From: a virus | Taxonomy: Duplodnaviria; Heunggongvirae; Uroviricota; Caudoviricetes | Virus record (IMG/VR): IMGVR_UViG_2778261526_000005 | DNA length: 57,324 nucleotides | Strand: one strand, 5' to 3' | Part shown: positions 1,740 to 48,221 of the stretch, piece after piece | Layout: each line of letters begins with the position of its first letter | Position numbering within the stretch: position 1 is the first letter of the stretch | Program-made: the position numbers and the translations under genes | The notes under the pieces: generated by a model | Databases searched by the model: none | Told to the model about the DNA's origin: nothing | Seen by the model: only the letters and a program-made list of their open reading frames with translations

Positions 1740-2609
<870 letters not shown>

Positions 2610-2666
2610 GTCTTTAAGTGATAAGCATAAACCGCAGCACGATCTTGCATACGACGTGCTACGGTT

Positions 2667-3174: not shown

Positions 3175-3729
3175 GTGATGCTGCATACTATGAATTTCAC
3201 GGTGCCCGTAAATCAGTCCACCGTTAACGCTTTAATTAGCAATTGCCTTGGAGCTATCAATCAGGGGGCGACTGAGTTAAACATTTACATTTCCAGTCCG
3301 GGCGGTGACCTCGTTGCAGGTTTTACTGCTTATCACTTTCTAAAGGCCCTACCAATCCCAGTAAAGACCCATAACCTTAGCAATGTTGAATCAGTCGCTA
3401 ATATCATTTTTCTTGCAGGGTCTGAACGTAAGGCGAATCCTGGGAGTCGGTTCTTACTGCATCCTTTTCACTGGGGCTTGATGGGCCCAAGCGTGGATCA
3501 CTCACGCGTCAGTGAGTGGAGCGCGTGTCTCAATAATGACCTGGAGCGTTTTGTCGATATTTTGGAGAGTCAGATTGAGCTCAGTAAGAGCCGCAATGAG
3601 TGGAAGGAGGTTATCTCCGCCGCCACCATAGCCAATGCCTCCACAGCTCTGGATTGGGGGATGGTTCACGAGGTTGCCGCCGCCACTTACCCGCAGGCAC
3701 CCGGCACATACTGGTGGATTAACTGTTAA
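3175..3729 (+). CDS. ClpP-like (S14 family) serine peptidase homolog
   Basis: IYISSPGGDLVAGFTAYHFL resembles ClpP IYINSPGG; Ser in VESVAN and His in LLHPF at positions equivalent to the ClpP Ser/His; strong RBS AAGGAG upstream. Confidence 0.55.
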   Translation: MMLHTMNFTVPVNQSTVNALISNCLGAINQGATELNIYISSPGGDLVAGFTAYHFLKALPIPVKTHNLSNVESVANIIFLAGSERKANPGSRFLLHPFHWGLMGPSVDHSRVSEWSACLNNDLERFVDILESQIELSKSRNEWKEVISAATIANASTALDWGMVHEVAAATYPQAPGTYWWINC

Positions 3730-3888
3730 CATAATTACCTCTCAAATTTAAATTGGGCAGAGATGCCAGCATCCAGGCTCGCGCCTGGACGATTGTCTGA
3801 TGATGAAAAGTGCAGTTTAATCTGTGGCTGGATTATCTGGATGCACTGGAGCTGGTTGATACCTCCAGTGCGCCAGATATTGAATGGC

Positions 3889-4323
3889 CTACTCCTCCGG
3901 CAGTTCAGGCCAGATGACATCCGGTGCGGTGCTGGTATCTGTTGCCGTCACAGCGTCGATATAATCCAGCACAACGTTAAGTCGGGTAGTTTCTTCTTGC
4001 GTCAGTTTGCGCCCGGCCTGCAGCTTTAACTGAATCACGCTGATATTGACCATTGCTGCGTCTATCAACGACTGTTTTTTCTGTTCAGCGTCAGCTACCA
4101 GTTCATCATGAGAACGTTCCGGAGGGAGCGGCGCAGTAAATACCCCGTCTGAATACGCCCAGCCGATTCCGGGCTGCTCACTGATATCAGAAATATTAAT
4201 GAGCTGCAGATTATCCGGCACAGTGAATTCATCCTCGCCATCCCAGACAATGACATTCACAACCATCCCATTTTCAATAACTGCATATGACGCATTCATT
4301 ATGCAAACTCCTCGATAATACAA
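3889..4323 (-). CDS. Tail fibre assembly protein (Tfa)
   Basis: Position directly after tail fibre gene; C-terminal [10 protein letters not shown] typical of Tfa family. Confidence 0.7.
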
Positions 4324-5225
4324 ACCCCATCAGCACCTTTCCCGCCCGTCATACTGGTTCCGCTATAACCTGCATCGTATGCACCACCTCCGCCTGAACC
4401 AAATGCCCTGCCTCTAACGCCACCGCCAGCGCCTGCACGTCCACCGCCTCCCCAGTACGATGCACCGCCTTCACCGCTGACGCTGATATTCCCGGACTGA
4501 CCGTCGCCTCCATCTCCACCAGTGATGCGGATATCGCCAATATTCGGTACGCCTCCGTTACCGCCGTTTGTGTTTGTGACTCCTACTTTTCCGCCGCCTT
4601 CACCACCAGGGGCTATTACCGATCCGAACGAGCTATCACCGCCCTTGAGGCCGTTCGTCGCACCAACGCCGCCGGCCCCACCTGCGCCGATAGTGACAGG
4701 ATAACTATTCTGTGTCGGGGTCAGTATGGTGATTACTGTCCCTCCGGCCCCACCGCCAGCACCGAAAAACGTTTCGTTACTGGATATAGCCTGGCAGCCA
4801 CCCCCTCCGCCACCGCCGCCCGTTATTGTGACCCTGATCCGTTTTGTTTCTGGTGATGGGGTATACGTACCTGATGACGCGAAAGCCCGGGTACTCAGCC
4901 GGCGTCCCACGTATCCGCTTGTATCTCCCAAACCAAGGTTTTGAAGAGCCGTTTTCACCGTGCCGTCCGATTTGATATCGCCAAACGGATTTTTGCGACT
5001 TAACAGCAGCGCACGAAGCGCGGTAAGCAGCTGGTCATGCCGCCCCTTCTCCAGGCTGGCACCGGATGCCTCCACCACGCTGCAGAGCTCCTCCTGCAAC
5101 ATGTCAAAGTAGTCATCATCCAGATCGGTGGCAGGCGTGCCGGTCTGGGGGTTACCACGGGTAAAACCGTTCTTACCCGCGCCGAACTTATCCTTCTGCG
5201 CGGTTTTCGTGTCTATACGATGCAT
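4299..5225 (-). CDS. Glycine-rich tail fibre protein
   Basis: Conserved phage N-terminus [34 protein letters not shown] followed by long Gly-rich repeats. Confidence 0.7.
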
Positions 5226-5228
5226 GGA

Positions 5229-5813
5229 TTACTCCGGATATTTAAAAATTACGTAGGTATGCGACGGGCAGAGTTTGTTAAGCACGCACTCGATAACGGT
5301 GTCCCCCCAGATACGCAGTGCGGAATCGCAGGGATCGCCACATGTCATCCAGGTGGTGTTGGTGGCAGCTGGCATATTGACCTGCCAGTAATACCGCCAT
5401 TCCGGCGCATTCACCGCGTCAGTACAGGCCGATGAGCAGGTGAACGTGCTTTTGTCGTATCGCGTGATGGTGGCATCTGGTCTGCCCAGGGCAGCAAGCT
5501 GCGCAAGGTAAAAATCCTCATTGATGCCACCCGCCAGGTTAACCTTCGCATCCAGCCGTTGCTGACGCTGGCGAAGGGTCTGCGTCCCTGCCGGAATACA
5601 TTCATCCGGCAGGCCGCACAGACGCTCCCAGCGGTTTATCAGTTCGGTGGTGGTGCGCGGATCCAGCTCCCGCATCAGGGCATCCGCACGCTGATGAGCA
5701 CGGGTTAATGACGGTGCCGCACCGGCAATCGCCGGATCGCTGGCTGACCACGCCGGACCGGGGGGCAACAGTGCCGACAACAGACGGATGTAATCATCGT
5801 TTGTCACGTCCAT
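5229..5813 (-). CDS. Phage tail protein, Mu gp48/YmfQ-like (DUF2313)
   Basis: Position between baseplate J and tail fibre; family recalled from Mu-like prophages. Confidence 0.55.
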
Positions 5814-6862
5814 GAAATCGTCCCCAGTACCGCCAGTTCATTTTTTGCAATGGAGATATTGTCTGCCGGTGCAAGCAACTGATGGCTGTATTCCCCGTTC
5901 GCACCGGAAATCGCCTCACTGATACGCGATACCTTCAGTTCTCCCTGCGGATAACCATCACGCAGAAGAAACGAACGCAACTCCGCGGTGATGGCGGCTC
6001 GTATTTCTGGTGTGTCCGGCGTCACGCGGATATGAAAATCCACTTTGTGCGCCACCGGCCTGAATACATACAAATCAGAGCCTGCCACCGGGGCCAGTGG
6101 CACGATATGTTGTCTTGCTGCCGTTTCCGTTGATTCTTCCGGAATGGGATTAATCAGGTCACTGCTGGCAATCATCACACCGACAGTTCCCGTTCCCATC
6201 CAGTGACGGTATGTCCATGCGCGGGTAATGCCGGGCACTTCTTTAGCCCAGACGACATAGTCCCCGTCAGCCCCGCCCTGAGGCGTCCAGTAATACCGCT
6301 CAATGACGCGGGCGCGCCACGTTTCCAGCTCTTCAGTATCAAATCCGCCTGTAAGGGTGTCAGCCACACCGGAAGACGGCAGACCATTCACCGGCGTGAC
6401 CAGGATTAATGCCGTACCGTCGTCAGCGTTACCGACCGCACCTGCACTTGAGCAGGCGATCGGCACGCGCAGGACACCACCGGAGCTGGTTGCATCGGCA
6501 GTTGCCGTGTACTGAACCAGGTCATCGCGCTGAATAACACTCCCGGCGGTCACCTTCAGGCCATCGCTGACACCTTCCCAGCGCATATACCCGCTGGCAG
6601 CCGTGGCCCCCTTGCGCGGACACCGTTTCATCGCAGCATGTCGCGCCAGCCAGGACTCATCGCACAGGTCAGGCAGCATGTTCATTGCCAGATAATCGAT
6701 GTAACCGTAAACCGTATGCAGCGCCGCCGCATACACCTTTGCCCGCACGTCTTCATCCATGCGCCGGAGCGTGTCGCTGACGTCCAGCCTGGCGAATAAA
6801 TCGTTACGGAGCATACTGATATTTTCTGCCAGCGTCGGGCGCTGAAATTCACTGTCCGCCAT
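5804..6862 (-). CDS. Baseplate J-like protein (Mu gp47 / P2 J family)
   Basis: Size and position in a Mu-type baseplate cluster; overlapping start/stop coupling with neighbours. Confidence 0.75.
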
Positions 6863-7277
6863 GCGTTATCGCACTCCACAGATCATCAAAAGAAATCATT
6901 ACCGGTCCGTCACGACGCCAGAGAGTGATACTGTTACCCAGTTCATTAATCCCGGTGCGGCGGATATCCAGATCAATACGGGACACCACGCCGTCATCAA
7001 TCATCCATTGCAGGCATTCGCGGATATACCCCCTTACCGTCTGCACCAGCTGATTGGTCAGTTTGCTGCGCTGAAGCAGCCACAGTCGGGAGCCGTAACG
7101 GTCATTCTGTACCGCAGGCCAGGTATCCCCCCACCATCCCATCGGGACGTCGGCGTTGTCATCAGGCTCCGCCCGCCGCCAGGTAAACAGGGAAATCACC
7201 ACGGCGCGGGTCAGCGGATCCAGTTCTGCGCTGGCGCAGGTGCGTTTACCGTTCACCGTCAGCCACAGTTCCATCAT
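6849..7277 (-). CDS. Baseplate protein, Mu gp46-like
   Basis: Position and size in baseplate module. Confidence 0.6.
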   Translation of the reverse strand: MMELWLTVNGKRTCASAELDPLTRAVVISLFTWRRAEPDDNADVPMGWWGDTWPAVQNDRYGSRLWLLQRSKLTNQLVQTVRGYIRECLQWMIDDGVVSRIDLDIRRTGINELGNSITLWRRDGPVMISFDDLWSAITHGGQ

Positions 7278-7822
7278 GCCTCCATCGCTTTATCAGGTTT
7301 GTCGGTGTTACTGCCCTGACCGTTCTCTCTGTGACGATGCCCGTTATAGGCAAGCCGCATCGCTGACATGGTGGTACCGCCGGAGTCGCACAGGTCTTTC
7401 ACCTGTCCGGTCACTTCCAGGTCCATTTCAAAACGTGCTCTGGGCGCATTGCGAAACGTGATCGTTTTACCTGCACCGTCCACCACGATCCCCTCCCGGG
7501 TCAGCGTCACAGACTGCCCCTGATCGTCATAGACAGCCACCTCACCCGTCTGCAGCCCTTTCAGGCGGTAGCGCCGGTCCGACACCGTAACAACCACCGC
7601 ATGAGAACGGTCGCCATCCGGAAACAACACCACCGCTTCCGCACCGCTGTTTGCCCTTGCGGTAAAACCGTAGGGTTCAAGATGTTCAACCCCGGCTTTG
7701 GGTTCACCGGCAATCAGGGACACATCCACGGTCTGACATTTCGTGGCGGCACTGATGCTTTTCACCACTGCCCGCCCAATCAGGCCGAGAAGTTGTCGCT
7801 GCATGGCTTCAATCGTCCTCAT
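7274..7822 (-). CDS. Baseplate assembly protein V / Mu gp45-like
   Basis: Position and size in baseplate module. Confidence 0.65.
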   Translation of the reverse strand: MRTIEAMQRQLLGLIGRAVVKSISAATKCQTVDVSLIAGEPKAGVEHLEPYGFTARANSGAEAVVLFPDGDRSHAVVVTVSDRRYRLKGLQTGEVAVYDDQGQSVTLTREGIVVDGAGKTITFRNAPRARFEMDLEVTGQVKDLCDSGGTTMSAMRLAYNGHRHRENGQGSNTDKPDKAMEA

Positions 7823-8901
7823 CAGAACGGGTCCTCCTGTACTCTGGCTTTTTTCTTTTTCCGCGCACCGGGATCTTCGGGTTCAGGCAGATAAGCATCA
7901 GGTGGGCCGACACGGATTTCCGTCAGGGTGCCGTTCTGGTCCTGAGTAAATGTGACTTCCGAAACAAGCAGTTCGGTATTGTCGAAACCACAGACCGGAT
8001 CAAAGACAATCACCCGCTGGTTGGGCTGCCACAGCGTACCGTTACCCTGTCGCCAGCCCTGCACCACATAGGTGGTTTCATCCGTCCGCGCCGCCCGTTG
8101 TCGGGCTTCAAAGTCCGCACGGGCAATACAGCCTGCCCCCGTAGCCTGCCCTGTCTGCCTGATATACATCGGACGGTAACGGGCAATAAATGCGTCCTCT
8201 GTGCGGGCCCGCAGCGCGGTGGTGGTGGCCTCACCGAAATCATCGTCGTTTCCGGCACGCTGCCCCGCCACCTGGTAAACAGAAAATCGCTCCCGGATAC
8301 TCTTCTCCGTATCGCAGGAAAGGATGTTTTCCCCGAGTACCAGCGCAGTATGTGCCCGCGTTGAGCCAATACCGCCAATCACCAGCCTGCCGTGCGGGTC
8401 GTCGTAAGCCAGTGCCTGCTGCTGACCGAGTATTTTGTTGATTACCTCAATCACCGTTTCACCGTGATCAGGCTGAACATCAGGAATAACACCCGACGGC
8501 GCACCGCTGTTCACCACCTCAATGCCGAAAGGCGCAGCAAGCGCCTGCGCAATCTGCACCAGCGAGCGTCCGTTAAACTGTGTCGGTTCGGCTGCACAGT
8601 CAATCAGGTCAGCCGTCAGACTACGTCCGGCAATACCGGTGCTGACCGAACGGGCATCGTAACGAACGGGAGTCGCCTCCACCCAGCCGGTGATCACCAG
8701 CTCATCACCAATCAGCACTTCCACTTTTGAACCGTTTTTAATGCGCGGCTGAAGCGTGGTGATACCCTCATCTCCCGGCCACTGGCGAGTGATCTCCACA
8801 CTGAAATCCCGCGCCAGCCGTTCAATACCGGCACCGATGCGCACCGATGTCCAGCCATTCCACTCCCGGCCATTTACCCGTAGCGTGACATTGTCGTTCA
8901 T
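7822..8901 (-). CDS. Tail/baseplate hub protein, Mu gp44 (P) / P2 gpD-like
   Basis: Position after DNA-circulation protein; size about 360 aa. Confidence 0.65.
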   Translation of the reverse strand: MNDNVTLRVNGREWNGWTSVRIGAGIERLARDFSVEITRQWPGDEGITTLQPRIKNGSKVEVLIGDELVITGWVEATPVRYDARSVSTGIAGRSLTADLIDCAAEPTQFNGRSLVQIAQALAAPFGIEVVNSGAPSGVIPDVQPDHGETVIEVINKILGQQQALAYDDPHGRLVIGGIGSTRAHTALVLGENILSCDTEKSIRERFSVYQVAGQRAGNDDDFGEATTTALRARTEDAFIARYRPMYIRQTGQATGAGCIARADFEARQRAARTDETTYVVQGWRQGNGTLWQPNQRVIVFDPVCGFDNTELLVSEVTFTQDQNGTLTEIRVGPPDAYLPEPEDPGARKKKKARVQEDPF

Positions 8902-10226
8902 TGCACTGGCACCTTCAGAGGGATCACCGGCACAAAGCCGGGATGCGTAATGGCATTACGCCGGATAATGTCCGCGTCACGCGCCGCGTTATCAAACCAG
9001 GTCGCCGCCAGCACCAGCGCGGGTAAAACCTCATCCGGCGTGCGCTGAATGATCCGTGCAGACTGTTCAAGGCGCGTGTTGATATCCGCATTCAGATCTG
9101 CTTTCACCCGGCGCAGCGCCAGAAACAGCGCATCACTGGTTGTACGGGACAACTCCTTATCAATTGCCGTATTCAGTGTGTCGCGAATGTCGGTCAGTTC
9201 TTCCCACGTTGGCAGGTCAACCGTGTTTTTCACCGCCGGTGCATTGTTCAGTGCCGGATGCGTGACAGAAGGCCAGCCTGTGCTCTGCGCGGGTGTTGTT
9301 GACTGCCCCACTGTGGCATTCTGCATCACCGCGGAAGTTGTGGGCGCAGGCAATCGTGTGACGGCATACGCCGCTTCGCTGATTGCGGTCGTACGAAGGG
9401 TGCTGGCAACCACGTTACGCTGCTGCGTCGCCGTGGCGGTGGTTTTACTGTCCGTTTTCCAGACGCCGCGCGGTTGCAGATCGCTGCCGAGGCTGACACC
9501 GGAAAGCGTTTTGATCATGGTGACCAGGTCGCTGGCGTTACCATAAAGGCGTTTCCCGGTACGCCACATTTTCTGCACCTGCTCAACGAAATTTTTGCCT
9601 GACGATGGCGGCGGCAGAAGTACCGAGATATCCCCCTGCAACAGCCTGGCGGCATCCGATACGGCAGAATCCACCACTTTCATCGCATCAGAAACATACC
9701 CAAGCATTGTGCTGGCATTACCGACGACGTCGTTCTGCACAAAATCTGCCACGCCATCGATACTGAAACCACTGAAGCTGTCACTGATGCAGTCATCCAG
9801 TGTAGAACAGGATGACATCAGCGTCTGCGCCGTCGCCGCACCTGAAGTGGGGTAAGAGAGTTCTCCCGCTTCGACAAACTTCAGGTCAAAGCGGACAATA
9901 CGCCCTTCACTCTTCGATGTGCTGACCCGAACTTCCCCGTCAACACAGACTTTCAGCTCACCGTAAGTCGGATGGACAAGCGTGCCGGGACCGGGTTTAT
10001 TCAGCGCGTCAATCAGGCGATCGCGCTGGTCAAAGCAGTCATCTCCCACCACATAAGCTGTGATGGACGGGCGGAAAGTGATTTTCCCCAGGTCTTCGGT
10101 ATAGGGTTTGTCGCGGTTCGGGTATTCGTGCGTTTCCACACGACGACCGGTTCCCGCACTTTCTTCTTCAACCTTAAATGGCACACCGCGAAATGACGCG
10201 TCCTGAAGTCTGTCTTTCCACGTCAT
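8898..10226 (-). CDS. DNA circulation protein (Mu N/gp43-like); start placed at internal MTWKD Met
   Basis: N-terminal MTWKDRLQDASFRGVPF; GGAG RBS before the internal ATG; the upstream part of the track ORF overlaps a terminator hairpin. Confidence 0.65.
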   Translation of the reverse strand: MTWKDRLQDASFRGVPFKVEEESAGTGRRVETHEYPNRDKPYTEDLGKITFRPSITAYVVGDDCFDQRDRLIDALNKPGPGTLVHPTYGELKVCVDGEVRVSTSKSEGRIVRFDLKFVEAGELSYPTSGAATAQTLMSSCSTLDDCISDSFSGFSIDGVADFVQNDVVGNASTMLGYVSDAMKVVDSAVSDAARLLQGDISVLLPPPSSGKNFVEQVQKMWRTGKRLYGNASDLVTMIKTLSGVSLGSDLQPRGVWKTDSKTTATATQQRNVVASTLRTTAISEAAYAVTRLPAPTTSAVMQNATVGQSTTPAQSTGWPSVTHPALNNAPAVKNTVDLPTWEELTDIRDTLNTAIDKELSRTTSDALFLALRRVKADLNADINTRLEQSARIIQRTPDEVLPALVLAATWFDNAARDADIIRRNAITHPGFVPVIPLKVPVQ

Positions 10227-10241
10227 ATAAACTCCGTACAT

Positions 10242-10263
10242 AAAAAATCCCACCGGAGTGGGA
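10242..10263 (-). terminator. Intrinsic terminator downstream of tape-measure gene
   Basis: Minus strand reads tcccac-tccg-gtggga followed by tttttt. Confidence 0.55.
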
Positions 10264-10286
10264 CTCATTAACAGATTAATTTTTCA

Positions 10287-12122
10287 TTACCTGCCAAAGC
10301 GCGTATAGCCAACATCATGGCTGACATCAAAACCGCTGGATCGCGTTTCCATAACCCGCATACCCGGAGGCGAATTCACAAAAGAGACCTTGATCTCACC
10401 ATCAACTTTTGGCGCAGAAGCTTTGTTAATCATGAAGGGATTCGGGCCTGTGGCACCGGAGGCGTTGTTTGACTGAGCCGGATCCACCGCCTGATAAGGT
10501 GTGTATCCCCGTGCCGGTATTCCCGTCCCATAAGCATCATAAGCACCCGCGCCCCACTGCGCAGAGTTAATGGCATCGACCGTGTCACCGGAACTGTCGG
10601 TAAACCACTCAATAATTGGCTTCAGCTTGTCCCACATATCCTGAAACCACTTAACAACCGGTCCCCAGTTATTGATTACCATCCCCAGCGGCGACCAGGC
10701 AAAAACCTTCTTCAGAAGTTCCCAGCCAGCCTCAAAATAAGGACCAATGGTTTCCCAGAGCTTCTTGAAATAAGGTCCGACAACATCCCAGTTAGTGATA
10801 ATTAATCCCGCAGCCAGGGCTATCGCCGTCGCAATCATGCCAATCGGCGTCATCGACATGATCCTGCTGACAATACTGATGGCACCGCCAACGCCCATCA
10901 ATCCCAGTTTCAGAATCGCAAGACCGGCAGCAAGCCCGACGACGCCGCGAATAACCCGGGGATTTTCATCCGCAAACTTCGTGAATTTTTCCCCTAACTC
11001 CCCCAGCCATTGCGTGATATTTTGGGCGTCACCAGAAAATGCGCCGCCAATAGCTGCAAGACCGTTAGTTGCGGTCCCCGTCATTGCCTCCCACAGGTTG
11101 GACAGCGTACCAAGCTGTGCCTGAACACGTTTATTCAGGCTGGCCTGTTTATTCATCTTCTGCTGGATCTGATCGTAACCATCCTTTCCTTTATCGATCA
11201 GAGCATTGACCACCTGAAGGGTTTCAGCATCATCACCAAATATTGCCTTAAGTACACCTGTTCGCTTAACGTCGGTCAGTTTTCGCAGCTTTGCCAGTTG
11301 CTTAAACATGTTATCAAGACCGCCAAAACTCCCTTTGCCATCAGTAAAATCGAGCTGCACTCCGAGTTTCTGGCGGGCCATGACTTTATTGACGTCCCTG
11401 ATTTTCTTAACGCTTAATCCGGACTGGATAACTTTTCGCAGGGCATTACCTGCCGACTCCCCGTTCATCCCCATCTGATCCATCATGACGCTGATAGGGG
11501 CAAGGCTCTGTGCAGCCTGAAGTCCGTCCTTGTTCACCATCTTCAGAACAGAACTGGTTTTAGTGAAGAAAGACAACATGTTGGTATCGTCAACGCCCAG
11601 ATAAAACGCCTTCTGGATAGTGTCGAACAGCCCCATCATGTCTTCTGACGCCGTTCCGGTAGCATCCTGCATCTTTGCAGCAAACTCAGCAGCCGCTTCC
11701 GGTGTTTTTTTCAGTTGTACCGCAAGATAAGCTGTCGCTTTACCCACACCACCAAGAATGTTTTCTGCCGGGATCCCCTGACGCACCAGCATCTGCATCA
11801 TGTTCTGGAAATCAGCCGTTGTACCGGGTAGCTGGTTACCCAGGCCAATAGCCAGTTTATTGATGTCCTGAAAGCTCTTTCCAACCTCGCCGTTCGCATC
11901 CATCATGGCGACTTTCAGCCCGGTGGCGGCGTTTTCCTGATCGGCATAAGATTTCAGGGAAAGCGTCAGACCCGCTGCCAGTCCGCCACCAAGCGCCAGC
12001 CCACCCTGTGACGCTTCTTCCGCCTGGCGTTTAAATCCCCGGATTTTCTTTTGCATTTTCGACAGCGCGGGAGAAAGCCTGTCGACACCGGTGATCAACG
12101 CCTTAAGCTCAAATTCAGCCAT
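10287..12122 (-). CDS. Tail tape measure protein
   Basis: 611 aa, Ala/Gly-rich helical protein with C-terminal hydrophobic segments, after the frameshifted chaperone pair. Confidence 0.85.
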   Translation of the reverse strand: MAEFELKALITGVDRLSPALSKMQKKIRGFKRQAEEASQGGLALGGGLAAGLTLSLKSYADQENAATGLKVAMMDANGEVGKSFQDINKLAIGLGNQLPGTTADFQNMMQMLVRQGIPAENILGGVGKATAYLAVQLKKTPEAAAEFAAKMQDATGTASEDMMGLFDTIQKAFYLGVDDTNMLSFFTKTSSVLKMVNKDGLQAAQSLAPISVMMDQMGMNGESAGNALRKVIQSGLSVKKIRDVNKVMARQKLGVQLDFTDGKGSFGGLDNMFKQLAKLRKLTDVKRTGVLKAIFGDDAETLQVVNALIDKGKDGYDQIQQKMNKQASLNKRVQAQLGTLSNLWEAMTGTATNGLAAIGGAFSGDAQNITQWLGELGEKFTKFADENPRVIRGVVGLAAGLAILKLGLMGVGGAISIVSRIMSMTPIGMIATAIALAAGLIITNWDVVGPYFKKLWETIGPYFEAGWELLKKVFAWSPLGMVINNWGPVVKWFQDMWDKLKPIIEWFTDSSGDTVDAINSAQWGAGAYDAYGTGIPARGYTPYQAVDPAQSNNASGATGPNPFMINKASAPKVDGEIKVSFVNSPPGMRVMETRSSGFDVSHDVGYTRFGR

Positions 12123-35521: not shown

Positions 35522-35740
35522 GTGGAGAAACATATGCTGAACCTCGATTGTGTTCCAATCTCAACTTATTGCAAAGAAACTGGCGAAACTCCTGAAGCAA
35601 TAAACAAACGTGTACAGCGCGGTGTTTGGCGTGAAGGTGTTCAGGTTTTAAAGGTTGAAGGCGTTAAGGAGAGGTGGATTGATCTTAGTGAGGTTGCAAA
35701 ATGGGCCAGACAAAACTGCTCAAACTACCGCGCGGCGTAA
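35522..35740 (+). CDS. xis: Excisionase-like protein
   Basis: 72 aa directly upstream of and overlapping int. Confidence 0.5.
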   Translation: MEKHMLNLDCVPISTYCKETGETPEAINKRVQRGVWREGVQVLKVEGVKERWIDLSEVAKWARQNCSNYRAA

Positions 35741-36897
35741 CAATCAGGAAACACCGCCAGGGCGAAACGATCAATATAACTTTCACCTACAAAGGAGTTA
35801 AATGTCGTGAGCCTCTTTCCAATCTGGAAGTAACACCAAAGAACATTAAATACGCCGAGCGCACACTCGGCGAAATTCATAATAAGATCGAAAGGGGAAC
35901 ATTCATTTATGCGGAATATTTTCCCCGTTCTGCTCGTTTGAAAATTTTTGGTAATGCTGCTGCAGGCAAAACGGTAAAAATGTACCTGGACGAATACCTT
36001 GAAATCTGCGAAACGAGAAAACTCTCACCCTCAACGATTGGTGGTTATAAAAAATGCCGTAGTGCGTTAGCCTCACTCCACATTTGCCCTGCAAGTGAAT
36101 TAACACCAGCAATCCTGAAAGCGTGGATTCAAAGCCAGAAAACGACCTTAAAAACAATTCGCAACCAGTTATCTTTCCTGCGGTCAGCACTTGATGAAGC
36201 CGTAACCGATGGGATACTTCAAATTAACCCCGTATCGTTGGTAACTGCTTCGCGCTACCAAAGTGATAAGTCAGAAGCAGAAAGCTGCTACGTGGTTGAT
36301 CCGCTATCACCAACAGAAGTTGATGCATTACTAGCAGCAGCCGGAAACAAACAATGGGAGAATCTGTTCCGGTTCGCTATACATACAGGCCTGCGTAGTT
36401 CTGAATTATGTGCCCTTAGATGGCGTGATATCGACTTTGTTGGAAAAACTGCCCATGTCCAGAGTGCAAGTGTTGTCGGTGTTATCAAAGGAACAAAGAC
36501 AAAGGCCGGTACTCGTAAAGTTGAACTGACAGAAGAGGCTATGTTGGCGCTGATAAATCAGAAGCCATTTACATTCATGAAGGATGCTACTGTCTTTGAA
36601 GACCCAAAGACCAATAAGCCTTGGGCAAGTGCTGATGCAATCAGGAAAAAAGCATGGGTGCCAACATTACGGAAAGCAGGTATTCGATACAGAAATCCAT
36701 ATCAAACTAGGCATACATTCGCCACCAGCCATATCAGCCGAGGAGCAAATCTGTTTTGGCTTGCAGCTCAAATGGGGCATAAAGGGCCGGAAATGCTTTT
36801 CAGGCATTATGGTTCGTATCTCGTAGACTATGATGGCAAGACAGCTTGTAAGGACCAAGTATCAAAAAATCCGGAGAACATGAAAATTGAGAAGTAA
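35701..36897 (+). CDS. int: Tyrosine integrase (lambda Int family)
   Basis: Catalytic region with RHTFAT and HYGSY (His/Arg/Tyr). Confidence 0.9.
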   Translation: MGQTKLLKLPRGVTIRKHRQGETINITFTYKGVKCREPLSNLEVTPKNIKYAERTLGEIHNKIERGTFIYAEYFPRSARLKIFGNAAAGKTVKMYLDEYLEICETRKLSPSTIGGYKKCRSALASLHICPASELTPAILKAWIQSQKTTLKTIRNQLSFLRSALDEAVTDGILQINPVSLVTASRYQSDKSEAESCYVVDPLSPTEVDALLAAAGNKQWENLFRFAIHTGLRSSELCALRWRDIDFVGKTAHVQSASVVGVIKGTKTKAGTRKVELTEEAMLALINQKPFTFMKDATVFEDPKTNKPWASADAIRKKAWVPTLRKAGIRYRNPYQTRHTFATSHISRGANLFWLAAQMGHKGPEMLFRHYGSYLVDYDGKTACKDQVSKNPENMKIEK

Positions 36898-37007
36898 AAC
36901 GCCCGATAGCACTAGCCCCCCTTCGCAAAACAGTAAAGCTTACAAGAATGTTAGCAGGATGATGAGGATAGTGTACAATGGTTTTAGTGTGCATTAAATG
37001 CAAAGAT

Positions 37008-37038
37008 TTGACGTTTTTTGTCAAATTTGTGCTATAAA
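37008..37038 (+). promoter_or_regulatory. Candidate promoter with palindrome upstream of the ATPase gene
   Basis: TTGACG-N19-TATAAA; palindrome tttgac-N7-gtcaaa. Confidence 0.3.
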
Positions 37039-37087
37039 ATCACTTTTAGTGGTTTTTAAGCTATGGGAAGTTAAAAGGGTATAAATT

Positions 37088-38353
37088 ATGTTGATTGAGT
37101 TTACAGTACAAAACTATAAATCTATTTCAGAGAAACAAACACTGAGTTTAGTTGCATCAAAACTTAACGATTTGCCTAATAATCTGTTCAGTATTGATGA
37201 ACCTAAATCTCTTGAATTGCTTAAAAGTGCTGTGATTTATGGCCCTAATGCTGCCGGAAAATCAAACATTATTAACGCTATTACAACTATGGCTGAACTT
37301 ATTGTCCGGTCTGCTACAGGTTATAAAAGTGGTGATAAACTTGATATCACGCCTTTTAGACTAGACTCAAAGAAGATTAATCAACCATCTGAATTTGAAA
37401 TTAACTTTATTTCCGAAGGCATCAGATACCAGTATGGTTTTTCTGCAACAGAAGATTTTATTCACGACGAATGGTTATTTGCATTCCCCAAAGGCAGACC
37501 ACAAAAATGGTTTTTACGTCTATGGGATGAAGAAAAACAAACCCATGAATGGGAGTTGGGGCCATCGTTGACAGGAGAAAAACAAACATGGTTGAAATCA
37601 ACCAGGCCTAATGCGCTCTTTCTTTCTACAGCGGTACAATTAAACAGTGTACAACTAAAACCTGTATACGATTGGTTTTATTACAAAGTTAAATTTACTG
37701 AATTAACAGGTTGGGATAGTGATTACAGTGCAAAGCAATGCTTAAATGATAAGAAAGATGAGATTCTCAATTTTTTAAAAGCTGCCGATGTAGGTATTGA
37801 TGACATTCATGTAACAAAAGAAAAATTCAATCCCAATGCTCTTCCTGATGATATGCCTGCAGCCATCAAGGAACTAGTGATTAAGAATATGCAAGGCAAG
37901 GAAGAATATGTCATTAAAACACTTCATAATAATGAGGATGGAGAGCCAATTCCATTCGATTTAAAAGATGAATCGCATGGAACTAGAAAAATCTTTAGTT
38001 TCGCGGGTCCCTTATCACATTCACTCGAGACAGGAAACATCCTGTTTATTGATGAATTAAATGATAACTTACACCCCAAATTAGTTGAGTTTATTGTAGG
38101 TTTATTTCACGATAAAAATATCAATAAGAATGGTGCCCAGTTAATCTTTACAACTCATGAGACGTCTATTTTAAATCAAGATGTTTTCAGACGAGATCAG
38201 ATTTGGTTTGTAGAAAAAGACAATTCAAAGCAAACAAATCTTTTCCCACTTACGGATTTTAGTCCAAGAAAAGGAAGGGAGAATTTAGAAGCTTCTTATC
38301 TTGACGGTAGATATGGGGCTTTACCACTCATTGGGAAATGGGAGAGATATTAA
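37088..38353 (+). CDS. AAA/ABC-type ATPase (AbiLi-like, OLD-family ATPase module)
   Basis: Walker A GPNAAGKSN; Walker B ILFIDELNDNLHP. Confidence 0.65.
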   Translation: MLIEFTVQNYKSISEKQTLSLVASKLNDLPNNLFSIDEPKSLELLKSAVIYGPNAAGKSNIINAITTMAELIVRSATGYKSGDKLDITPFRLDSKKINQPSEFEINFISEGIRYQYGFSATEDFIHDEWLFAFPKGRPQKWFLRLWDEEKQTHEWELGPSLTGEKQTWLKSTRPNALFLSTAVQLNSVQLKPVYDWFYYKVKFTELTGWDSDYSAKQCLNDKKDEILNFLKAADVGIDDIHVTKEKFNPNALPDDMPAAIKELVIKNMQGKEEYVIKTLHNNEDGEPIPFDLKDESHGTRKIFSFAGPLSHSLETGNILFIDELNDNLHPKLVEFIVGLFHDKNINKNGAQLIFTTHETSILNQDVFRRDQIWFVEKDNSKQTNLFPLTDFSPRKGRENLEASYLDGRYGALPLIGKWERY

Positions 38354-39039
38354 TGGGAAGCGAAGATCTGTTCAAAAAAAGAAAGGCTCGGCGTAATAAT
38401 GAATTCAAACGAGTTAGTAAAGCACGAGCTCAAATGAAGAAAATTCTTATCGTCTGTGAGGGAGAGAAGACTGAGCCCGCATATTTTACAGATTTTATAA
38501 AACATTGCCGTATAAGCACGGCAAGCATAGTTGAGATTTCTGGAGAGTGCGGCTCAAGCCCTATGAATGTGGTATCTTGGGCAAAAGAAAAATATAATAC
38601 GGAAAAAAAAAGGAGCGACCCTTATGATAAGGTTTATTGTGTCTTTGATAGAGACGCTCACCCTAACTATGATGAAGCTCTTAGCAGGATTAATTCCTTA
38701 AATCCAAAAGGGATTTTTGTTGCTATAACTTCCATACCATGTTTCGAGTACTGGCTGATACTACATTTTGGATACACCCGAAAATCATTTTCACCTCAGA
38801 AAGGCAAAAGTGAAGGCGCACAAATGCTAGCTGAGTTAAAAAAATACATGCCAGATTATGAGAAAAAGGCATCAGGTGTATTTAATAAATTGCAAGATCG
38901 GCTCGATACGGCATTAATCAATGCTAAAAGAGTCGAAGATGCCGCCAAAAAAGACGGTTCGATAAATCCTTCAACTAAAGTTGGCGCTTTGATTACAGAT
39001 CTAATTAACATTCGTGATGACTTTGAAAATGAGAAGTAA
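38338..39039 (+). CDS. RloB-like (TOPRIM-like) protein, AbiLii-like
   Basis: ILIVCEGEKTEPAYF matches the RloB motif as recalled; overlaps the ATPase gene. Confidence 0.6.
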   Translation: MGEILMGSEDLFKKRKARRNNEFKRVSKARAQMKKILIVCEGEKTEPAYFTDFIKHCRISTASIVEISGECGSSPMNVVSWAKEKYNTEKKRSDPYDKVYCVFDRDAHPNYDEALSRINSLNPKGIFVAITSIPCFEYWLILHFGYTRKSFSPQKGKSEGAQMLAELKKYMPDYEKKASGVFNKLQDRLDTALINAKRVEDAAKKDGSINPSTKVGALITDLINIRDDFENEK

Positions 39040-39379: not shown

Positions 39380-40579
39380 GTGGCACGGACAACACGCCCC
39401 CTGACCAACACCGAAGTTCTGCGCGCGAAAGCGTTAGAGAAGGATCTAACGCTGCATGATGGCGATGGGCTTTTCCTGATAGTGAAAACTAGCGGCAAGA
39501 AACTCTGGCGCTTTCGCTATCAACGCCCAGCAACAAAACAGCGGACTATGATGGGACTTGGTGCTTTTCCTGCCCTTTCTCTTGCTGATGCCCGAGGGTT
39601 AAGAGCAGATTACCTTGCCCTATTAGCCAACGGAATCGACCCGCAAATTCAAGCTGAAGTTGCAGAGGAACAGCAGCAAATCGCTCTGGACAGTATTTTT
39701 TCGACGGTCGCCGCTAACTGGTTCCAGCTCAAAAGCAAAAGCGTTACCCATGATTACGCTAAAGATATATGGCGTTCACTGGAAAAAGACGTATTCCCCA
39801 CCATCGGGGAGATCCCTGTCCAGCAAATCAAAGCCCGAACACTGGTTGAAGCCCTTGAACCGATCAAAGCTCGTGGGGCGCTGGAGACGGTGCGCCGGTT
39901 GGTGCAGCGTGTTAACGAGATAATGATTTATGCCGTAAATACTGGTCTTATTGATGCCAATCCAGCATCAGGCATTGGAATGGCCTTTGAGAAGCCAAAA
40001 AAACAAAATATGCCTACGTTGCGCCCAGAAGAATTGCCTATGCTGATGCGTTCTCTCGTCATGTCAAATTTGTCTGTTCCGACTCGCTGCCTCATTGAGT
40101 GGCAACTCCTGACTCTAGTTCGTCCTTCTGAGGCTTCCGGTGCTAGGTGGGCTGAGCTCGATCTCGATGCAAAGCTCTGGACTATCCCAACTGAACGAAT
40201 GAAGGCTAAGCGGGAACACATAGTCCCTCTATCTCCTCAGGCATTAGAGATTCTTGATGTGATGAAGCTAATCAGTGCCCATCGTGAACATGTTTTCCCG
40301 AGTCGGAATGACCCAAAGCAACCAATGAATAGCCAGACGGCAAATGCTGCTTTAAAAAGGATTGGATTTGGTGGTAGATTGGTTGCTCATGGATTGCGTT
40401 CAATTGCCAGCACCGCATTAAATGAAGCGGGTTTTAATGCAGATGTAATTGAGGCTGCTCTTGCACATAGTGATAAAAATGAAGTGCGCAGAGCATATAA
40501 TCGTTCAACTTACCTTGAGCAACGAATAGGACTTATGAATTGGTGGGGCCAAAAAGTGTACGAGCGCAATCAATATTAG
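39380..40579 (+). CDS. Tyrosine integrase, P4/CP4-57 IntA-like (GTG start)
   Basis: Closely resembles E. coli IntA as recalled; AGGAG RBS. Confidence 0.9.
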   Translation: MARTTRPLTNTEVLRAKALEKDLTLHDGDGLFLIVKTSGKKLWRFRYQRPATKQRTMMGLGAFPALSLADARGLRADYLALLANGIDPQIQAEVAEEQQQIALDSIFSTVAANWFQLKSKSVTHDYAKDIWRSLEKDVFPTIGEIPVQQIKARTLVEALEPIKARGALETVRRLVQRVNEIMIYAVNTGLIDANPASGIGMAFEKPKKQNMPTLRPEELPMLMRSLVMSNLSVPTRCLIEWQLLTLVRPSEASGARWAELDLDAKLWTIPTERMKAKREHIVPLSPQALEILDVMKLISAHREHVFPSRNDPKQPMNSQTANAALKRIGFGGRLVAHGLRSIASTALNEAGFNADVIEAALAHSDKNEVRRAYNRSTYLEQRIGLMNWWGQKVYERNQY

Positions 40580-40608
40580 TTAACTTGTTATACATGGAGA
40601 TATAGTTC

Positions 40609-41067
40609 ATGGAGAATAATCTAGATAATTTATGTTATGAATTCTTTAGAGAGTTTTCACGTTATGAATATTGCCTTAAGGCATGTGGACTTCATCATAA
40701 AATAAAAGATGCTAAAGCGAACTGGGATGAGTATGCAAAGCAAGTTTCTGAAATCATAAATAACACAACTGATCCAGAGCTAATTGCTGCTATCACCTAC
40801 TTTAAAGAACACCCACCCAAAAAACAAATCATAGAAGATGACTCTTTAGTTTGGGATGATTCTTTACCACAAGAAAAAGATTTAGCAAAATTTCTTTTTT
40901 TGTTAATCCGCCGTGTAAGAAACAATCTTTTTCACGGAGGAAAATTTAACGGGAAATGGTTTGAACCTGAACGTAGTGAGGCGTTACTGCAACATGGCCT
41001 TGTTATTTTGAGGCATTGCGGCACAAGGCATAGTGAAGTAAGCAAAGCCTATTCTGGAATAGCCTGA
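40609..41067 (+). CDS. Hypothetical 152-aa protein in int-psu hotspot
   Basis: AT-rich ORF convergent with the helicase gene. Confidence 0.45.
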   Translation: MENNLDNLCYEFFREFSRYEYCLKACGLHHKIKDAKANWDEYAKQVSEIINNTTDPELIAAITYFKEHPPKKQIIEDDSLVWDDSLPQEKDLAKFLFLLIRRVRNNLFHGGKFNGKWFEPERSEALLQHGLVILRHCGTRHSEVSKAYSGIA

Positions 41068-41159
41068 GCGGTGTTATAAAAGAGAAGTTTTTGTTACTGG
41101 AAGAATGATAAAATTCAAAAACTTCTCTATTGATTGTTTAAAAAATCGTCTAAATAAGA

Positions 41160-43742
41160 CTATTGTACCCAAAAGTTACGAAATATATTATGTATTTCGT
41201 TTTGAACTAATTGTGGCAGTTCTTCCATGTCAACTTTATTGTCCTTAATCCAATTAATGCATTCTTCCTCATCTAAACTATCATTAGGAATAAGCTCTGA
41301 AATCATTACAGCAGCAGTTCTTGAAAAGCCAAGCCCTATTAGTGAAATCTGAGTTTTTAAACTTACACCCAGTTCTAAATAAACACCGATATCTTCAACA
41401 TCTTTTGCTAAGTCTGTGCGATCTATCGAAAGATAAAAGCTTTTTAATAAATCATTATAACATCCTAAAAGCCTTGGAGCTTGATAGCGAGCGATCTCTT
41501 CAACATCCTTCATAACCCCTCGTATTAAAGTCGCTTCTTTGAAAACAATATTTTTCTTTTTGTTATATCTTATTCTATCCGAGATCAATCTTGCTAGGGG
41601 ATAACCTTTCATCCACTTGGAAACTAACAAGGCCTGTACGTAAGCTCCTTTTGAATTATAACCTAGCTTCTTACTCAGAGTATCACTAATTCTAGAGAAT
41701 GCGGATACATATGAATCTAACGCATCATTACTACCAGGTTCAGAAAGCAGTAATCTCTCTACAGGTTTGTTTGTATCCCGCGAAAATCTATCCCAAAGGT
41801 TTTGCATTAAAAGCGGGCTTATACCAGGATGCCGCACAACCAATTCGTGTGGAAAAGTTAAAGAATCAAAAACATCAAATATTGCTTCATTTAAAACATC
41901 GATATTTTTTATATTGTACTTTTCCATGTAAGGATTATTATCCAAGCCATTATAAAAATAAAATGATGAACATAAATAACTAAATAGACTCTGGAGATTA
42001 GGATTCCGCTCAGACATACCAAAATGATGCTCTGAAAAAATATAGGAAACCAACTTATCCATGTCATGGGAAATAGCATCCGTGGCGCGAGTTATAAATA
42101 TATTTTTTTTGGTTTTTGGAGGCTCTCCATTCCAAATTTTTTCATTGTCGCTATCGATGCAGATGACATTACCTTGGAATTCTTTTCCCCAACGACCAGC
42201 TCTGCCAGCAAGATTCCAAAAATCCTCTTCTCGCATCGGGGTTGAATTACCCTTTTTAGGGCCTCTTATAAAAATATTTTTACAAGCCATGTTTACGCCC
42301 TCAACTAAAGTTGAGGTACAAATTAAAAAATCAATCTTACCTTTACTAAACAATCGTTCAATCTCGCCCTTTATTATTAAAGGCATGTTGCCATAATGAA
42401 AAGCGACTCTCTTTTTTAGAGTGCGATTTAATGCGAAATTTTTATGTATAATTGTCTCACTAAGCTCAACGAGAGCTAAAATTTCTTCATCCTCAGTCTC
42501 ATTTTCTATACTTGCAGATATTAGCTTGGAAGTAGATTCTGCTTCAGCGGCTCCATTTACGTAAACTACGTTACCAGAAGCCCCCTTACCTAAACAAAGA
42601 GCTACAAAAGGCAATCTTTTACTTTCAGGAGATGGTGCATTTTCTAAAGAAAAGTTTCCTAACTCGCGTTTTTCACCGTTTGCAAAATAATACATCAACC
42701 AATCTTTGGTCTTGCGTGGTTTTTGTTCTACCCATATTAAATTTTGATTAACTGTAACATAGTCACTTTTTATAGTTCTTTTGTTTTTTAATATTGGAGC
42801 ATCACTGAGCAATATTTCAGGATTTAAGGTGAAAGGACTTGCAAAGATAACTTTTGAATCAGGGTTATTTAGACAAGTCAGTTCAATTACATGTTGAAGA
42901 ATAACACCTCTTCCACCATCACCGATCTTGTGTGCTTCATCAACAACTAAGACGTCTATCTTTGGAATTTGTGAGAAATGATTGTAGAATAAATTTAATC
43001 TTTCCTGTGTAAATATGAAGACATTAGATTTTTCGCTCTGGTATACATTACTCAATGGTAGTGTCTGAATATTAACTATATTTGTTAAATTAGGATCCAA
43101 ACGTTTTTGCAACTCAGAATATACTTCTGAAATCAATGCCCTTGTTGGTACGATATAAATAACTAAGCAATTCTTATTTCTTTTTACAAACTGCTCCACC
43201 CAAGATTCCAGGATAAATGATTTTCCTACAGAGGTAGGAGCAGAGACACTAACCCATGAGTTTTCTTGTACCGCATCCCAAAACTCTGATTGAAACCTAT
43301 TAGCATAAATATGCTTATCAGCATCTATTTCAATTGTATATAGAATTTTTCTTTTAGTTAGTTCTAACTGAGCCTTTAAGGGTAATCTTTCTTCGAAATC
43401 AGGGTTAAGATACCCCCTATTTTCAGCAAGTTGTATTGCTGGATTATTAGATAATGAATCAAGAATTAATGCAGCACTATCTTTTCTTGCTTCACTTTTT
43501 TCATTCAATAAGCAATACTGTGCAATCCTTAAGGCTGCATCTTGGCATTTCTCATCACTTGAGAAAGCCAAAGAACTAGCACATGTTAAAAGATAGCCGA
43601 CATCCTCAGAACTAATCTGTGGGATTACATCTGATTTTAACTCTGGAAATTGATCTTTTATCGAGTTAGCGACTAATGCCTGATATTTTCTTAAGAATCC
43701 TTGATTCTTAATCAACCACCCAGATAAATCTCGCAACGACAT
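41160..43742 (-). CDS. Superfamily II helicase, Hachiman HamB-like
   Basis: Motif I SAPTSVGKSF, motif II VVDEAHKI, motif VI-like AGRAGRWG. Confidence 0.6.
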   Translation of the reverse strand: MSLRDLSGWLIKNQGFLRKYQALVANSIKDQFPELKSDVIPQISSEDVGYLLTCASSLAFSSDEKCQDAALRIAQYCLLNEKSEARKDSAALILDSLSNNPAIQLAENRGYLNPDFEERLPLKAQLELTKRKILYTIEIDADKHIYANRFQSEFWDAVQENSWVSVSAPTSVGKSFILESWVEQFVKRNKNCLVIYIVPTRALISEVYSELQKRLDPNLTNIVNIQTLPLSNVYQSEKSNVFIFTQERLNLFYNHFSQIPKIDVLVVDEAHKIGDGGRGVILQHVIELTCLNNPDSKVIFASPFTLNPEILLSDAPILKNKRTIKSDYVTVNQNLIWVEQKPRKTKDWLMYYFANGEKRELGNFSLENAPSPESKRLPFVALCLGKGASGNVVYVNGAAEAESTSKLISASIENETEDEEILALVELSETIIHKNFALNRTLKKRVAFHYGNMPLIIKGEIERLFSKGKIDFLICTSTLVEGVNMACKNIFIRGPKKGNSTPMREEDFWNLAGRAGRWGKEFQGNVICIDSDNEKIWNGEPPKTKKNIFITRATDAISHDMDKLVSYIFSEHHFGMSERNPNLQSLFSYLCSSFYFYNGLDNNPYMEKYNIKNIDVLNEAIFDVFDSLTFPHELVVRHPGISPLLMQNLWDRFSRDTNKPVERLLLSEPGSNDALDSYVSAFSRISDTLSKKLGYNSKGAYVQALLVSKWMKGYPLARLISDRIRYNKKKNIVFKEATLIRGVMKDVEEIARYQAPRLLGCYNDLLKSFYLSIDRTDLAKDVEDIGVYLELGVSLKTQISLIGLGFSRTAAVMISELIPNDSLDEEECINWIKDNKVDMEELPQLVQNEIHNIFRNFWVQ

Positions 43743-43743
43743 T

Positions 43744-44685
43744 TCAACTCTCCAATGCTTTAATTAAACTAGCCCTAAATGCTTTTACTGAAGGAAAAGG
43801 AAGAATAAAAACATGCATAGCAAAGCGATCAAGTTTTTTATTAACTATACCACCTTGCACACTAGTTGACCATTTCCCGACTTTAGTATTAATCAAAGCA
43901 ACTAGTTCACTGATATCAATTGAACTGGGCCCTTGTGGATAATCTTTAAGATCAAACCCAACTAAGCATATTCCTCTGTATTCCAATTTATTAAAATCCG
44001 GGCTATCAGGATCTAAGAATCTTTTCAACGCTTGTTCTAGTTCTATATCATCAACATTTAAGTGCGACTCCAGCAACTGCATATCACGTGTCTCAGCGCC
44101 TTCTATTCCCATAGAACTTTGAAGTAATGGAGCTATACTATCCATACACTCAGAAATACCTTTGCTCAGATTGGAATAGAGTTTAGACTCGCCCCAGTAT
44201 AAACATAATTTTTTATTATCTTTATCTACGCCTATATGTATTCCATCTGCACCATGGTAATGCATTTGAGAACTCGTTTTCAGGCTCATTTTGCAAATAA
44301 TTTGTGGAAATCTAAGGAATTGCTCTGCAAATAAAAAAAGAATAAATTCACCGCCTTCGCCACTATTTGCAAGCCTAGTAAATAATTTTTTTGCTTGATT
44401 TGCTAATTTTGTTATTTTCGCTGTTGATTGTGTTTCATTAAAATATTGCACTGCCTCATTGATTTTTTTCCTTGGAATAGCATAATCAACTACTTTATCG
44501 TTCAAGAATTGGATTAACGCGTCTACCCGAGGACGTCCATTGCCATCAAGATTAAGGCAATGAAAATGACAAGTTGCATTTGTATTTTCAATCAATGAAT
44601 TAACTTTAACTTCACTAAAATAACTATTTAGTGTTTGACCATCATCTCTAATCAGATTTTCAAGCGCGACATGCAGTGCATCCAT
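43744..44685 (-). CDS. HamA-like protein (possible PD-(D/E)xK nuclease)
   Basis: 313 aa immediately upstream of the helicase; D...ESK-type motif (GVDKD...WGESKL). Confidence 0.45.
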   Translation of the reverse strand: MDALHVALENLIRDDGQTLNSYFSEVKVNSLIENTNATCHFHCLNLDGNGRPRVDALIQFLNDKVVDYAIPRKKINEAVQYFNETQSTAKITKLANQAKKLFTRLANSGEGGEFILFLFAEQFLRFPQIICKMSLKTSSQMHYHGADGIHIGVDKDNKKLCLYWGESKLYSNLSKGISECMDSIAPLLQSSMGIEGAETRDMQLLESHLNVDDIELEQALKRFLDPDSPDFNKLEYRGICLVGFDLKDYPQGPSSIDISELVALINTKVGKWSTSVQGGIVNKKLDRFAMHVFILPFPSVKAFRASLIKALES

Positions 44686-47862: not shown

Positions 47863-48221
47863 TGATGCCTGAACGCATTAATCCCCATTTTTCTGGCTTG
47901 CATCCTGCAGTCATTTCCAGGTATAGTTTTTCCGCTGCCGCAAAATCGGCAGCCGGAATTGGCGTTCCGCGAAACTCAATGGCGACACCAGACGCGCCAA
48001 GCGTCTTTTTTTTCGTCGAAGCTCTGGCACACCCATTTTCCAGGCTGTGGTGTTTATGCGTACACCGTGGTTCTTTCGAGATAATGGCAGTCCGGGCGGG
48101 GCAGCCTTCGGGCTGGCCGGTATCCATTGAGGCCGGTTACGCCAACCCCGTTCGGGCTGCCACCAGTGAAATTGGCGTTTCCGGTGGTAGCAATAACCGC
48201 TACTCAATGGAGGCTGCCATC

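Follow-up and report, generated by a model that had tools for sequence, protein, structure and literature searches.

Csx1, Csm6, Cas13 and the HEPN toxins are characterised HEPN RNases and provide the analogy for the protein discussed here. A composite HEPN active site has been described (PMC11317161), and modules that are recurrently acquired by unrelated defence systems have a precedent in the nuclease-protease pairs (PMC12799240). Here, we analyse a stretch of 57,324 nucleotides from a tailed virus of the Caudoviricetes (IMG/VR record IMGVR_UViG_2778261526_000005; the whole stretch is called the window below). It contains a P4-like satellite element in which a small gene, ORF152, lies between the integrase gene int and the Hachiman defence genes hamB and hamA. 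A first-pass annotation, made from the sequence without database searches, had described this gene as unassigned and free of any recognisable motif, and had left three options for it: single-gene defence in its own right, anti-defence, or assistance to the neighbouring pair. We propose, with roughly even confidence, that ORF152 would be an autonomous, minimal module of the HEPN RNase type, carried as defence cargo and independent of Hachiman HamAB. The features on which this proposal turns are the following.

40609..41067, plus strand: ORF152, ATG start, 152 aa, a stand-alone HEPN-like protein of the phrog_19013 family
40596..40599, plus strand: GGAG ribosome-binding site, 9 nt 5' of the ATG, kept in the Raoultella-type ortholog locus
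40918..40950, plus strand: putative catalytic motif of the HEPN Rx4H type, codons R104-N-N-L-F-H109-G-G-K112-F-N114, assigned from conservation and from alignment to the Csx1-Crn2 HEPN domain

The conserved motif is of particular interest. Residues 101-114 of ORF152, RRVRNNLFHGGKFN, hold an Rx4H motif of the HEPN type. In an alignment of homologs at about 50% identity, 33 in number, the string R104-N105-x-L107-F108-H109-G110-G111-K112-F113-N114 was invariant, as were F16, R18, E20, L23, K24, W39, P70, Q73 and W82. A set of 57 diverse homologs at 30-50% identity, which includes a phage copy and a plasmid copy, left E20, K24, R104 and K112 invariant (R104 and K112 in 57/57), with N105, N106, L107, F108, H109 and G110 conserved to at least 96% (N105 and H109 in 56/57). 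Read from the sequence, R-N-x-x-x-H is the HEPN Rx4-6H signature, with the usual polar follower (N, D or H) after the arginine, here as R104-N105-N-L-F-H109; the gene therefore does have a recognisable motif, contrary to the first-pass annotation. The best sequence match in the PDB was the HEPN domain of Csx1-Crn2, at a statistically marginal E of 0.085-0.14. The alignment covers nearly the whole HEPN domain and places RNxxxHGG of ORF152 in register with the catalytic residues R401/N402/H406. No curated HEPN family in Pfam or NCBIfam gave a significant match, and the best PDB profile remained at the marginal E values just given. An AlphaFold2 (AF2) model is a single domain with a mean confidence (pLDDT) of 90.4 and a beta-hairpin insert at residues 72-83, which is shared by the family. 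The predicted fold appears to resemble HEPN, and a Foldseek search of the model against PDB and BFVD returned no significant match. The remote homology and structure prediction that had been suggested as a check thus yielded a motif and an in-register alignment, but no significant HEPN profile or structural hit.

ORF152 differs from each of the described HEPN systems to which it might be compared. With the HEPN domain of Csx1 and Csm6 (Marinitoga Csx1-Crn2, PDB 8Y6Z/8Y7F) it shares the register of the motif and a domain of about 140 aa, but it has no CARF sensor, no helix-turn-helix, no Crn2 and no evident ligand-sensing part, and it does not lie near CRISPR-Cas. Its activation logic must therefore differ from that of Csx1/Csm6. 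To survey the family we used 80 species-representative loci from many phyla, and 148 flanks were scanned for Pfam families. No cas genes were found among the partners in these flank scans, and the protein is a single domain rather than a CARF-HEPN fusion. The small HEPN toxins of HEPN-MNT pairs (SO_3166; PDB 5YEP, 7AE2, 8XDJ) are alike in size and perhaps in predicted fold; together with Csx1/Csm6 they come closest to ORF152 in presumed mechanism. The ORF152 family is set apart from them by the beta-hairpin insert and by an invariant GGK after the histidine, and no sequence similarity between ORF152 and these toxins was detected. An MNT antitoxin is absent beside ORF152 in the window and none recurs in the 80 loci; the only nucleotidyltransferase among the listed Pfam families of the 148 flanks is a single AbiEii.

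ApeA (PF18739) is a further candidate relative, being a single-gene HEPN defence candidate in the P4 int-psu hotspot of other strains, and some ORF152 homologs carry the UniRef label 'Apea-like HEPN'. ApeA proteins are several-fold larger. PF18739 (HEPN_Apea) matched 1 of the 33 aligned family members, at an E of 0.044 that is below threshold, and the PADLOC ApeA model gave no match. HEPN_Apea entries for the P4 hotspot occur in Table S1A of Rousset 2022, and the ORF152 protein is absent from the portions of the supplementary tables of that study that were covered. The P4-hotspot papers tested other unknown genes, and a literature search returned no paper mentioning WP_016809720. ORF152 belongs to phrog_19013 of PHROGs, a family of unknown function whose profile it matches over the full length (E = 1e-93; residues 1-152 against positions 1-152 of the 153 in the profile). 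Pfam and NCBIfam gave zero hits and PADLOC no real hit, so the gene remains unassigned, as first annotated; no paper or curated model covering the phrog_19013-type family was found in Pfam, NCBIfam, PADLOC or the literature. The family is large and uncharacterised, its members being about 150-170 aa long and almost always stand-alone. One member carries a fused Mrr restriction-nuclease domain.

ORF152 is a real gene under purifying selection. A 152-codon open frame would arise by chance at this GC content with a probability of about 2e-5 (estimated from base composition), homologs form 696 clusters at 90% identity and 2,022 clusters at 50% identity, and comparison with a 91%-identical ortholog gave a ratio of nonsynonymous to synonymous change (dN/dS) of 0.18; for these reasons we do not regard it as a chance reading frame. 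The open reading frame call agrees exactly with the 152-aa plus-strand gene first annotated and adds the GGAG upstream, in a region where the intergenic sequences of the window and of the Raoultella-type locus (L082) have CATGGAGATATA in common. The gene is indeed AT-rich. Its GC content of 0.359 (0.275 at third codon positions) resembles that of hamB (0.346) and hamA (0.348) and not that of int (0.483) or the P4 core (0.48-0.51). In one other isolate (IMG/VR UViG_2740892440_000004, L117:8001-8456), the gene has a 1-base deletion in a GGG run, at about position 40853 of the window; this reflects either an error in sequencing the homopolymer or an allele that is frameshifted in that isolate.

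The surroundings of ORF152 in the window are as follows.

39380..40579, plus strand: int, P4-type tyrosine integrase (Pfam Phage_integrase, 7e-31), ending 29 nt before ORF152
41081..41128, no strand: 13-bp perfect inverted repeat AGAGAAGTTTTTG / CAAAAACTTCTCT with a 22-nt loop, between the convergent stops of ORF152 and hamB
41160..43742, minus strand: hamB, Hachiman helicase (PADLOC HamB1, E=0), part of a neighbouring, separable system
43744..44685, minus strand: hamA, Hachiman DUF1837 nuclease (PF08878 2.9e-61; PADLOC HamA1 9.5e-136), likewise neighbouring and separable
47934-48011: isrK RNA, above the Rfam gathering score, P4-type immunity region
48080-48167: C4 antisense RNA, above the Rfam gathering score, P4-type immunity region

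The presence beyond hamBA of delta/ogr, psu, a sid-like gene, the C4 and isrK immunity RNAs and the alpha primase identifies the element as a P4-like satellite; no tRNA or tmRNA attachment site was found in the window. Within it, ORF152 is variable cargo of the int-psu defence hotspot. A further 170 or so E. coli genomes have related integrases (80-90% nucleotide identity), which are followed there by other cargo, SIR2 with an ATPase or a restriction endonuclease standing in place of ORF152. Their homology ends at query nt 1127-1178, about 40506-40557 in the window and 20-70 nt before the int stop codon. This is the left edge of the variable cargo, and ORF152 lies just inside it. Both the location of the gene within a hotspot and its position between int and a convergent helicase gene are therefore as first annotated. 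The cassette int-ORF152-HamB-HamA-delta-psu is found in 20 of 5,426 complete E. coli genomes. This rarity, together with the other cargo after related integrases, rules out a P4 housekeeping gene. Neither outcome that the first-pass annotation named as fatal to its suggestion, homology to such a gene or a lack of conservation, came about; the gene is strongly conserved among elements both related and unrelated.

The cassette is also present in Raoultella, Enterobacter and related assemblies, at 91% protein identity and integrated beside smpB. When positions 39380-44685 of the window were compared with 6772-12076 of L082, synonymous divergence (dS) was 0.21-0.37 for int, ORF152, HamB and HamA, whereas their psu and sid genes reach no more than 43-47% identity. 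Set against these divergent genes, the low dS of the block from int through the cargo indicates that the block has been exchanged between divergent P4 backbones; block swapping between backbones is described in general for P4 hotspots (PMC13586616).

ORF152 is probably co-transcribed with int, since the gap is only 29 nt and neither a promoter nor a terminator was predicted in it. On the other side, the inverted repeat (arms 41081-41093 / 41116-41128) is probably a bidirectional terminator for ORF152 and hamB. The fold of 41060-41165 has an energy of -21.7 kcal/mol (z = -2.9), and relative to L082 the stems of the hairpin are conserved while the loop varies. A simple terminator scan did not call it.

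Physical adjacency and co-inheritance in this cassette might suggest that ORF152 belongs to Hachiman. ORF152 and this HamAB occur together in 20/20 E. coli genomes, so that co-occurrence, the check proposed in the first-pass annotation, is complete within the species; among the species-level loci surveyed, HamA or HamB was found at 0/80. Co-occurrence is thus confined to one cassette lineage. In addition, ORF152 is convergent with hamB and is not matched by the PADLOC Hachiman model. Hachiman also occurs naturally alone. PF9285 is one of 8 E. coli genomes in which a related Hachiman (67.5% nucleotide identity, L104) occupies this P4 hotspot, integrated at ssrA, without ORF152, the int-hamB gap being only 22 nt; psu of that element is interrupted by an IS21-family element. 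Table S1A of Rousset 2022 includes the same two-gene Hachiman locus. Conversely, in E. coli AH04 (L097, locus 2501-7225; also AH02 and CT01), the IS5-family ISKpn26 splits hamB, and ORF152 is intact and identical. Three-gene HamC-HamA-HamB variants of Hachiman are known (PMC13064477), but a HamC-like role for ORF152 is ruled out by its convergent orientation, the lack of co-occurrence elsewhere and the Hachiman-only hotspots.

It is these natural Hachiman-only hotspots that separate Hachiman from ORF152, and not the published sufficiency of two genes in ECOR31. HamAB of the window belongs to another subtype than the ECOR31 system whose structure has been studied, so the ECOR31 result cannot simply be carried over to it: HamB of ECOR31 (8vx9_B) matches HamB of the window only at E = 5e-12, and HamA of the window has no PDB hit. 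Of the three options in the first-pass annotation, then, the independent defence module is favoured and the Hachiman accessory is not.

The wider family keeps company with defence genes. Approximately 15-20 of the 148 immediate neighbours are recognised defence genes by a rough count; the abstract of a review (PMC13434031) puts the genome-wide figure at about 1.5%. The neighbours are varied, including prokaryotic Argonaute (pAgo, 5 flanks), PDC-S32/AbiJ-NTD4 (4 flanks), type IV and type II restriction endonucleases, mad2, AbiEii, DRT8, HEC-05 and PDC-S06. There was no fixed partner among the 80 loci, no neighbour recurring in more than 7. Several multigene arrangements include a homolog.

L027:7146-10453; L030:5811-9051; L037:7213-10453; L040:7213-10453: SPARDA-type operons with a homolog
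L026:127-899: further SPARDA-type locus, cut by the contig end
L105:1339-6453; L110:3-2965; L111; L112: E1/E2/JAB-patatin-homolog operons
L011, L012, L013, each 5478-10453: IetA-IetS (Ietat)-AbiJ-NTD4/PDC-S32-homolog

In the four complete SPARDA-type operons, a DREN(DUF4365)-APAZ gene, a short pAgo (about 485 aa) and the ORF152 homolog follow one another with overlapping stops and starts. The hosts are Alphaproteobacteria (Roseovarius, Paracoccus, Gemmobacter and a metagenome-assembled genome). These operons form two lineages at 69-82% identity, and because their otherwise unrelated flanks share only about 300 bp, the three genes travel as a unit. The SPARDA preprint makes no mention of such a third gene. 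The IetA-IetS array is 100% identical in its three genomes, and such identity across two Mesorhizobium genomes and one Aliihoeflea genome points to recent horizontal transfer. In Enterobacter, an IetA-IetS-DUF4365-homolog array lies beside an ssrA-site integrase (L004/L100). DRT8 neighbours a homolog in Citrobacter, and in Pantoea a CTD12-MC8-DUF2326 operon and a resolvase lie beside one.

The E1/E2/JAB operons consist of a 376-aa protein of no assigned family, an E1/E2/JAB fusion, a patatin and then the homolog, and they adjoin a BrxR-type regulator. They resemble the accessory genes of type II CBASS (cyclic oligonucleotide-based anti-phage signalling system). The CBASS label was not confirmed, as PADLOC recognises no cyclase in the first gene. 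We also considered the family as the HEPN half of a split AbiJ and rejected this, since hhalign gave the family a probability of 0.5% against AbiJ-NTD4 and the pairing occurs in one element only. On an IMG/VR contig (L122:8678-9751), a YaaC-like gene (PF14175, 4.8e-45) with a weak HEPN match lies downstream of a 45% homolog and, going by its sequence, would be a second HEPN-related gene adjoining a family member.

Family members are also found on many kinds of mobile element. P2-like phages have them after ogr, E. coli has one between icd and a lambdoid integrase, and in a marine conjugative element one lies between the genes for the coupling protein and relaxase. A 170-aa copy at 29% identity that keeps IRNNLFHGGKY is carried by Escherichia phage vB_EcoM-683R1 and by 3 phages related to it (L094:5926-6438); it overlaps the upstream gene in a tail/baseplate morphogenesis operon, much as a moron would. 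Enterobacterial plasmids of 4.9-6.1 kb also have homologs (L092, which is pNFYY328-6 of 4,942 bp; L017; and L093, which is pMB7964_2). In a Citrobacter/Buttiauxella-type plasmid, which also carries ccdAB, the homolog sits in the rep operon behind a 157-aa gene, and in Klebsiella pMB7964_2 it has no evident partner gene. The 157-aa protein is ruled out as an antitoxin or paralog, being unrelated and having a signal-peptide-like N-terminus. The closest relatives that lack Hachiman, at 66% identity, are in Lelliottia (L098:6262-7480) and on a P2-like phage contig (L116:7232-8459). In both, just after ogr, the homolog overlaps an upstream 249-252 aa protein without a Pfam match, and the pair may be a two-gene module.

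Because the family is found on mobile elements beside many different anti-phage systems, ORF152 is probably a defence-type module of its own and not part of Hachiman. By analogy with the characterised HEPN enzymes, we infer RNase activity, dimerisation, a trigger and an anti-phage phenotype, and from the gene order co-transcription with int. Two copies of ORF152 would dimerise, and their R104-x4-H109 motifs would jointly make up a composite RNase site that needs no metal; N105 is a candidate contributor to it, as are E20, K24 and K112, which are invariant. When triggered in the course of phage infection, this site would cleave cellular or phage RNA (tRNA, rRNA or mRNA), and RNA cleavage would lead to growth arrest or abortive infection. 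ORF152 would be transcribed with int and, although it sits beside HamAB, would work independently of it. No antitoxin or sensor can be seen that would silence a bare HEPN domain. If ORF152 is an active RNase, it would be among the smallest stand-alone HEPN effectors, one without a visible sensor or antitoxin, and would raise the question of what silences such a domain and what switches it on. A family of about 2,000 clusters (at 50% identity) across many bacterial phyla that is absent from Pfam, NCBIfam and PADLOC has been overlooked by defence annotation. The E. coli P4 cassette offers a simple test system for ORF152.

Several other explanations have to be weighed. The strongest of these is that ORF152 is not an autonomous module but a promiscuous add-on, a portable accessory that acts as second effector, as back-up trigger or as regulator for the defence system at hand; in the window this would be Hachiman, and elsewhere a SPARDA, E1/E2/JAB-patatin or IetAS/AbiJ-like system. 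In 25/74 loci, a gene on the same strand ends no more than 60 nt upstream. In the DREN-APAZ/pAgo operons the overlapping stops and starts have been kept down to 69-82% identity, and the homolog comes last both after patatin (L105, L110-112) and after AbiJ-NTD4 (L011-13). In the P4 elements, int-ORF152-HamBA is inherited as one block across divergent backbones, and in E. coli the association of ORF152 with this HamAB is without exception. The nuclease-protease pairs (PMC12799240) are a precedent, being small modules appended to several unrelated defence systems, although ORF152 is one protein with HEPN-like chemistry whose attachment is known by gene order alone. Against this, ORF152 is convergent with hamB and hence a separate transcription unit, Hachiman is absent from the other 80 loci, and a related Hachiman fills the same hotspot without ORF152. 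Copies on small plasmids have no defence partner, the SPARDA-linked operons represent only two lineages, and a physical interface common to partners so unrelated in mechanism is hard to picture. We consider an accessory of this kind unlikely.

In a more specific form, which we think somewhat less probable again, the protein would be a plug-in HEPN RNase captured repeatedly as the last gene by SPARDA, E1/E2/JAB-patatin, IetAS/AbiJ-like and Hachiman systems, which would share it as a fail-safe or as a second-line effector of abortive infection. Its activation would then come from the partner system, or from the inhibition of that partner, rather than from a sensor domain of its own. The recurrent end position in SPARDA, patatin and IetAS operons could indicate a general add-on layer of immunity.

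ORF152 could instead benefit the mobile element in anti-defence or in competition between elements, for example by breaking down RNA of the host or of a competitor, or an immune signal. The carriers of the family are suggestive in this respect (P4-like and P2-like elements, a phage tail/baseplate operon, plasmids of 4.9-6.1 kb, a marine conjugative element), as is the place of ORF152 directly beside int, with which it is probably expressed. However, members from the genome scan are mostly chromosomal and lie within defence operons or form their last gene, a placement that is atypical for anti-defence genes. A catalytic-type motif that is invariant over about 2,000 clusters from many phyla better suits a generic enzymatic effector than a system-specific inhibitor. 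We know of no HEPN-fold anti-defence protein, and we regard this role as improbable.

A slightly poorer prospect is that ORF152 is a non-catalytic helical regulator or binding protein, with RNxxxH as a binding site, or that it has no role in conflict at all. That R, N and H are conserved almost without exception, with the spacing and polar follower of catalytic HEPN sites and in register with a proven catalytic motif, speaks against this, as do the Mrr nuclease fusion and the strong enrichment of defence neighbours. Least probable, and quite doubtful, is an orphan HEPN toxin that stabilises hotspot cargo or small plasmids by addiction, with RNA, a factor of the host or self-limitation as the antidote in place of a neighbouring protein: neither an MNT nor any other small partner recurs in the 80 loci, there are no type III antitoxin-like tandem repeats nearby, the upstream gap is only 29 nt and the downstream hairpin is placed like a terminator.

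Finally, cargo in the window is not limited to the interval after the P4-like int. Upstream of it lies a second integrase gene (35701-36897), followed by an AT-rich AbiLi/AbiLii pair at 37088-39039 (PADLOC 4.2e-101 and 3.2e-29). In E. coli D3, the position of this pair, after a P2-like prophage integrase, is taken by two different hypothetical genes. The interval 35701-39039 has the look of a further cargo hotspot that borders on the satellite.
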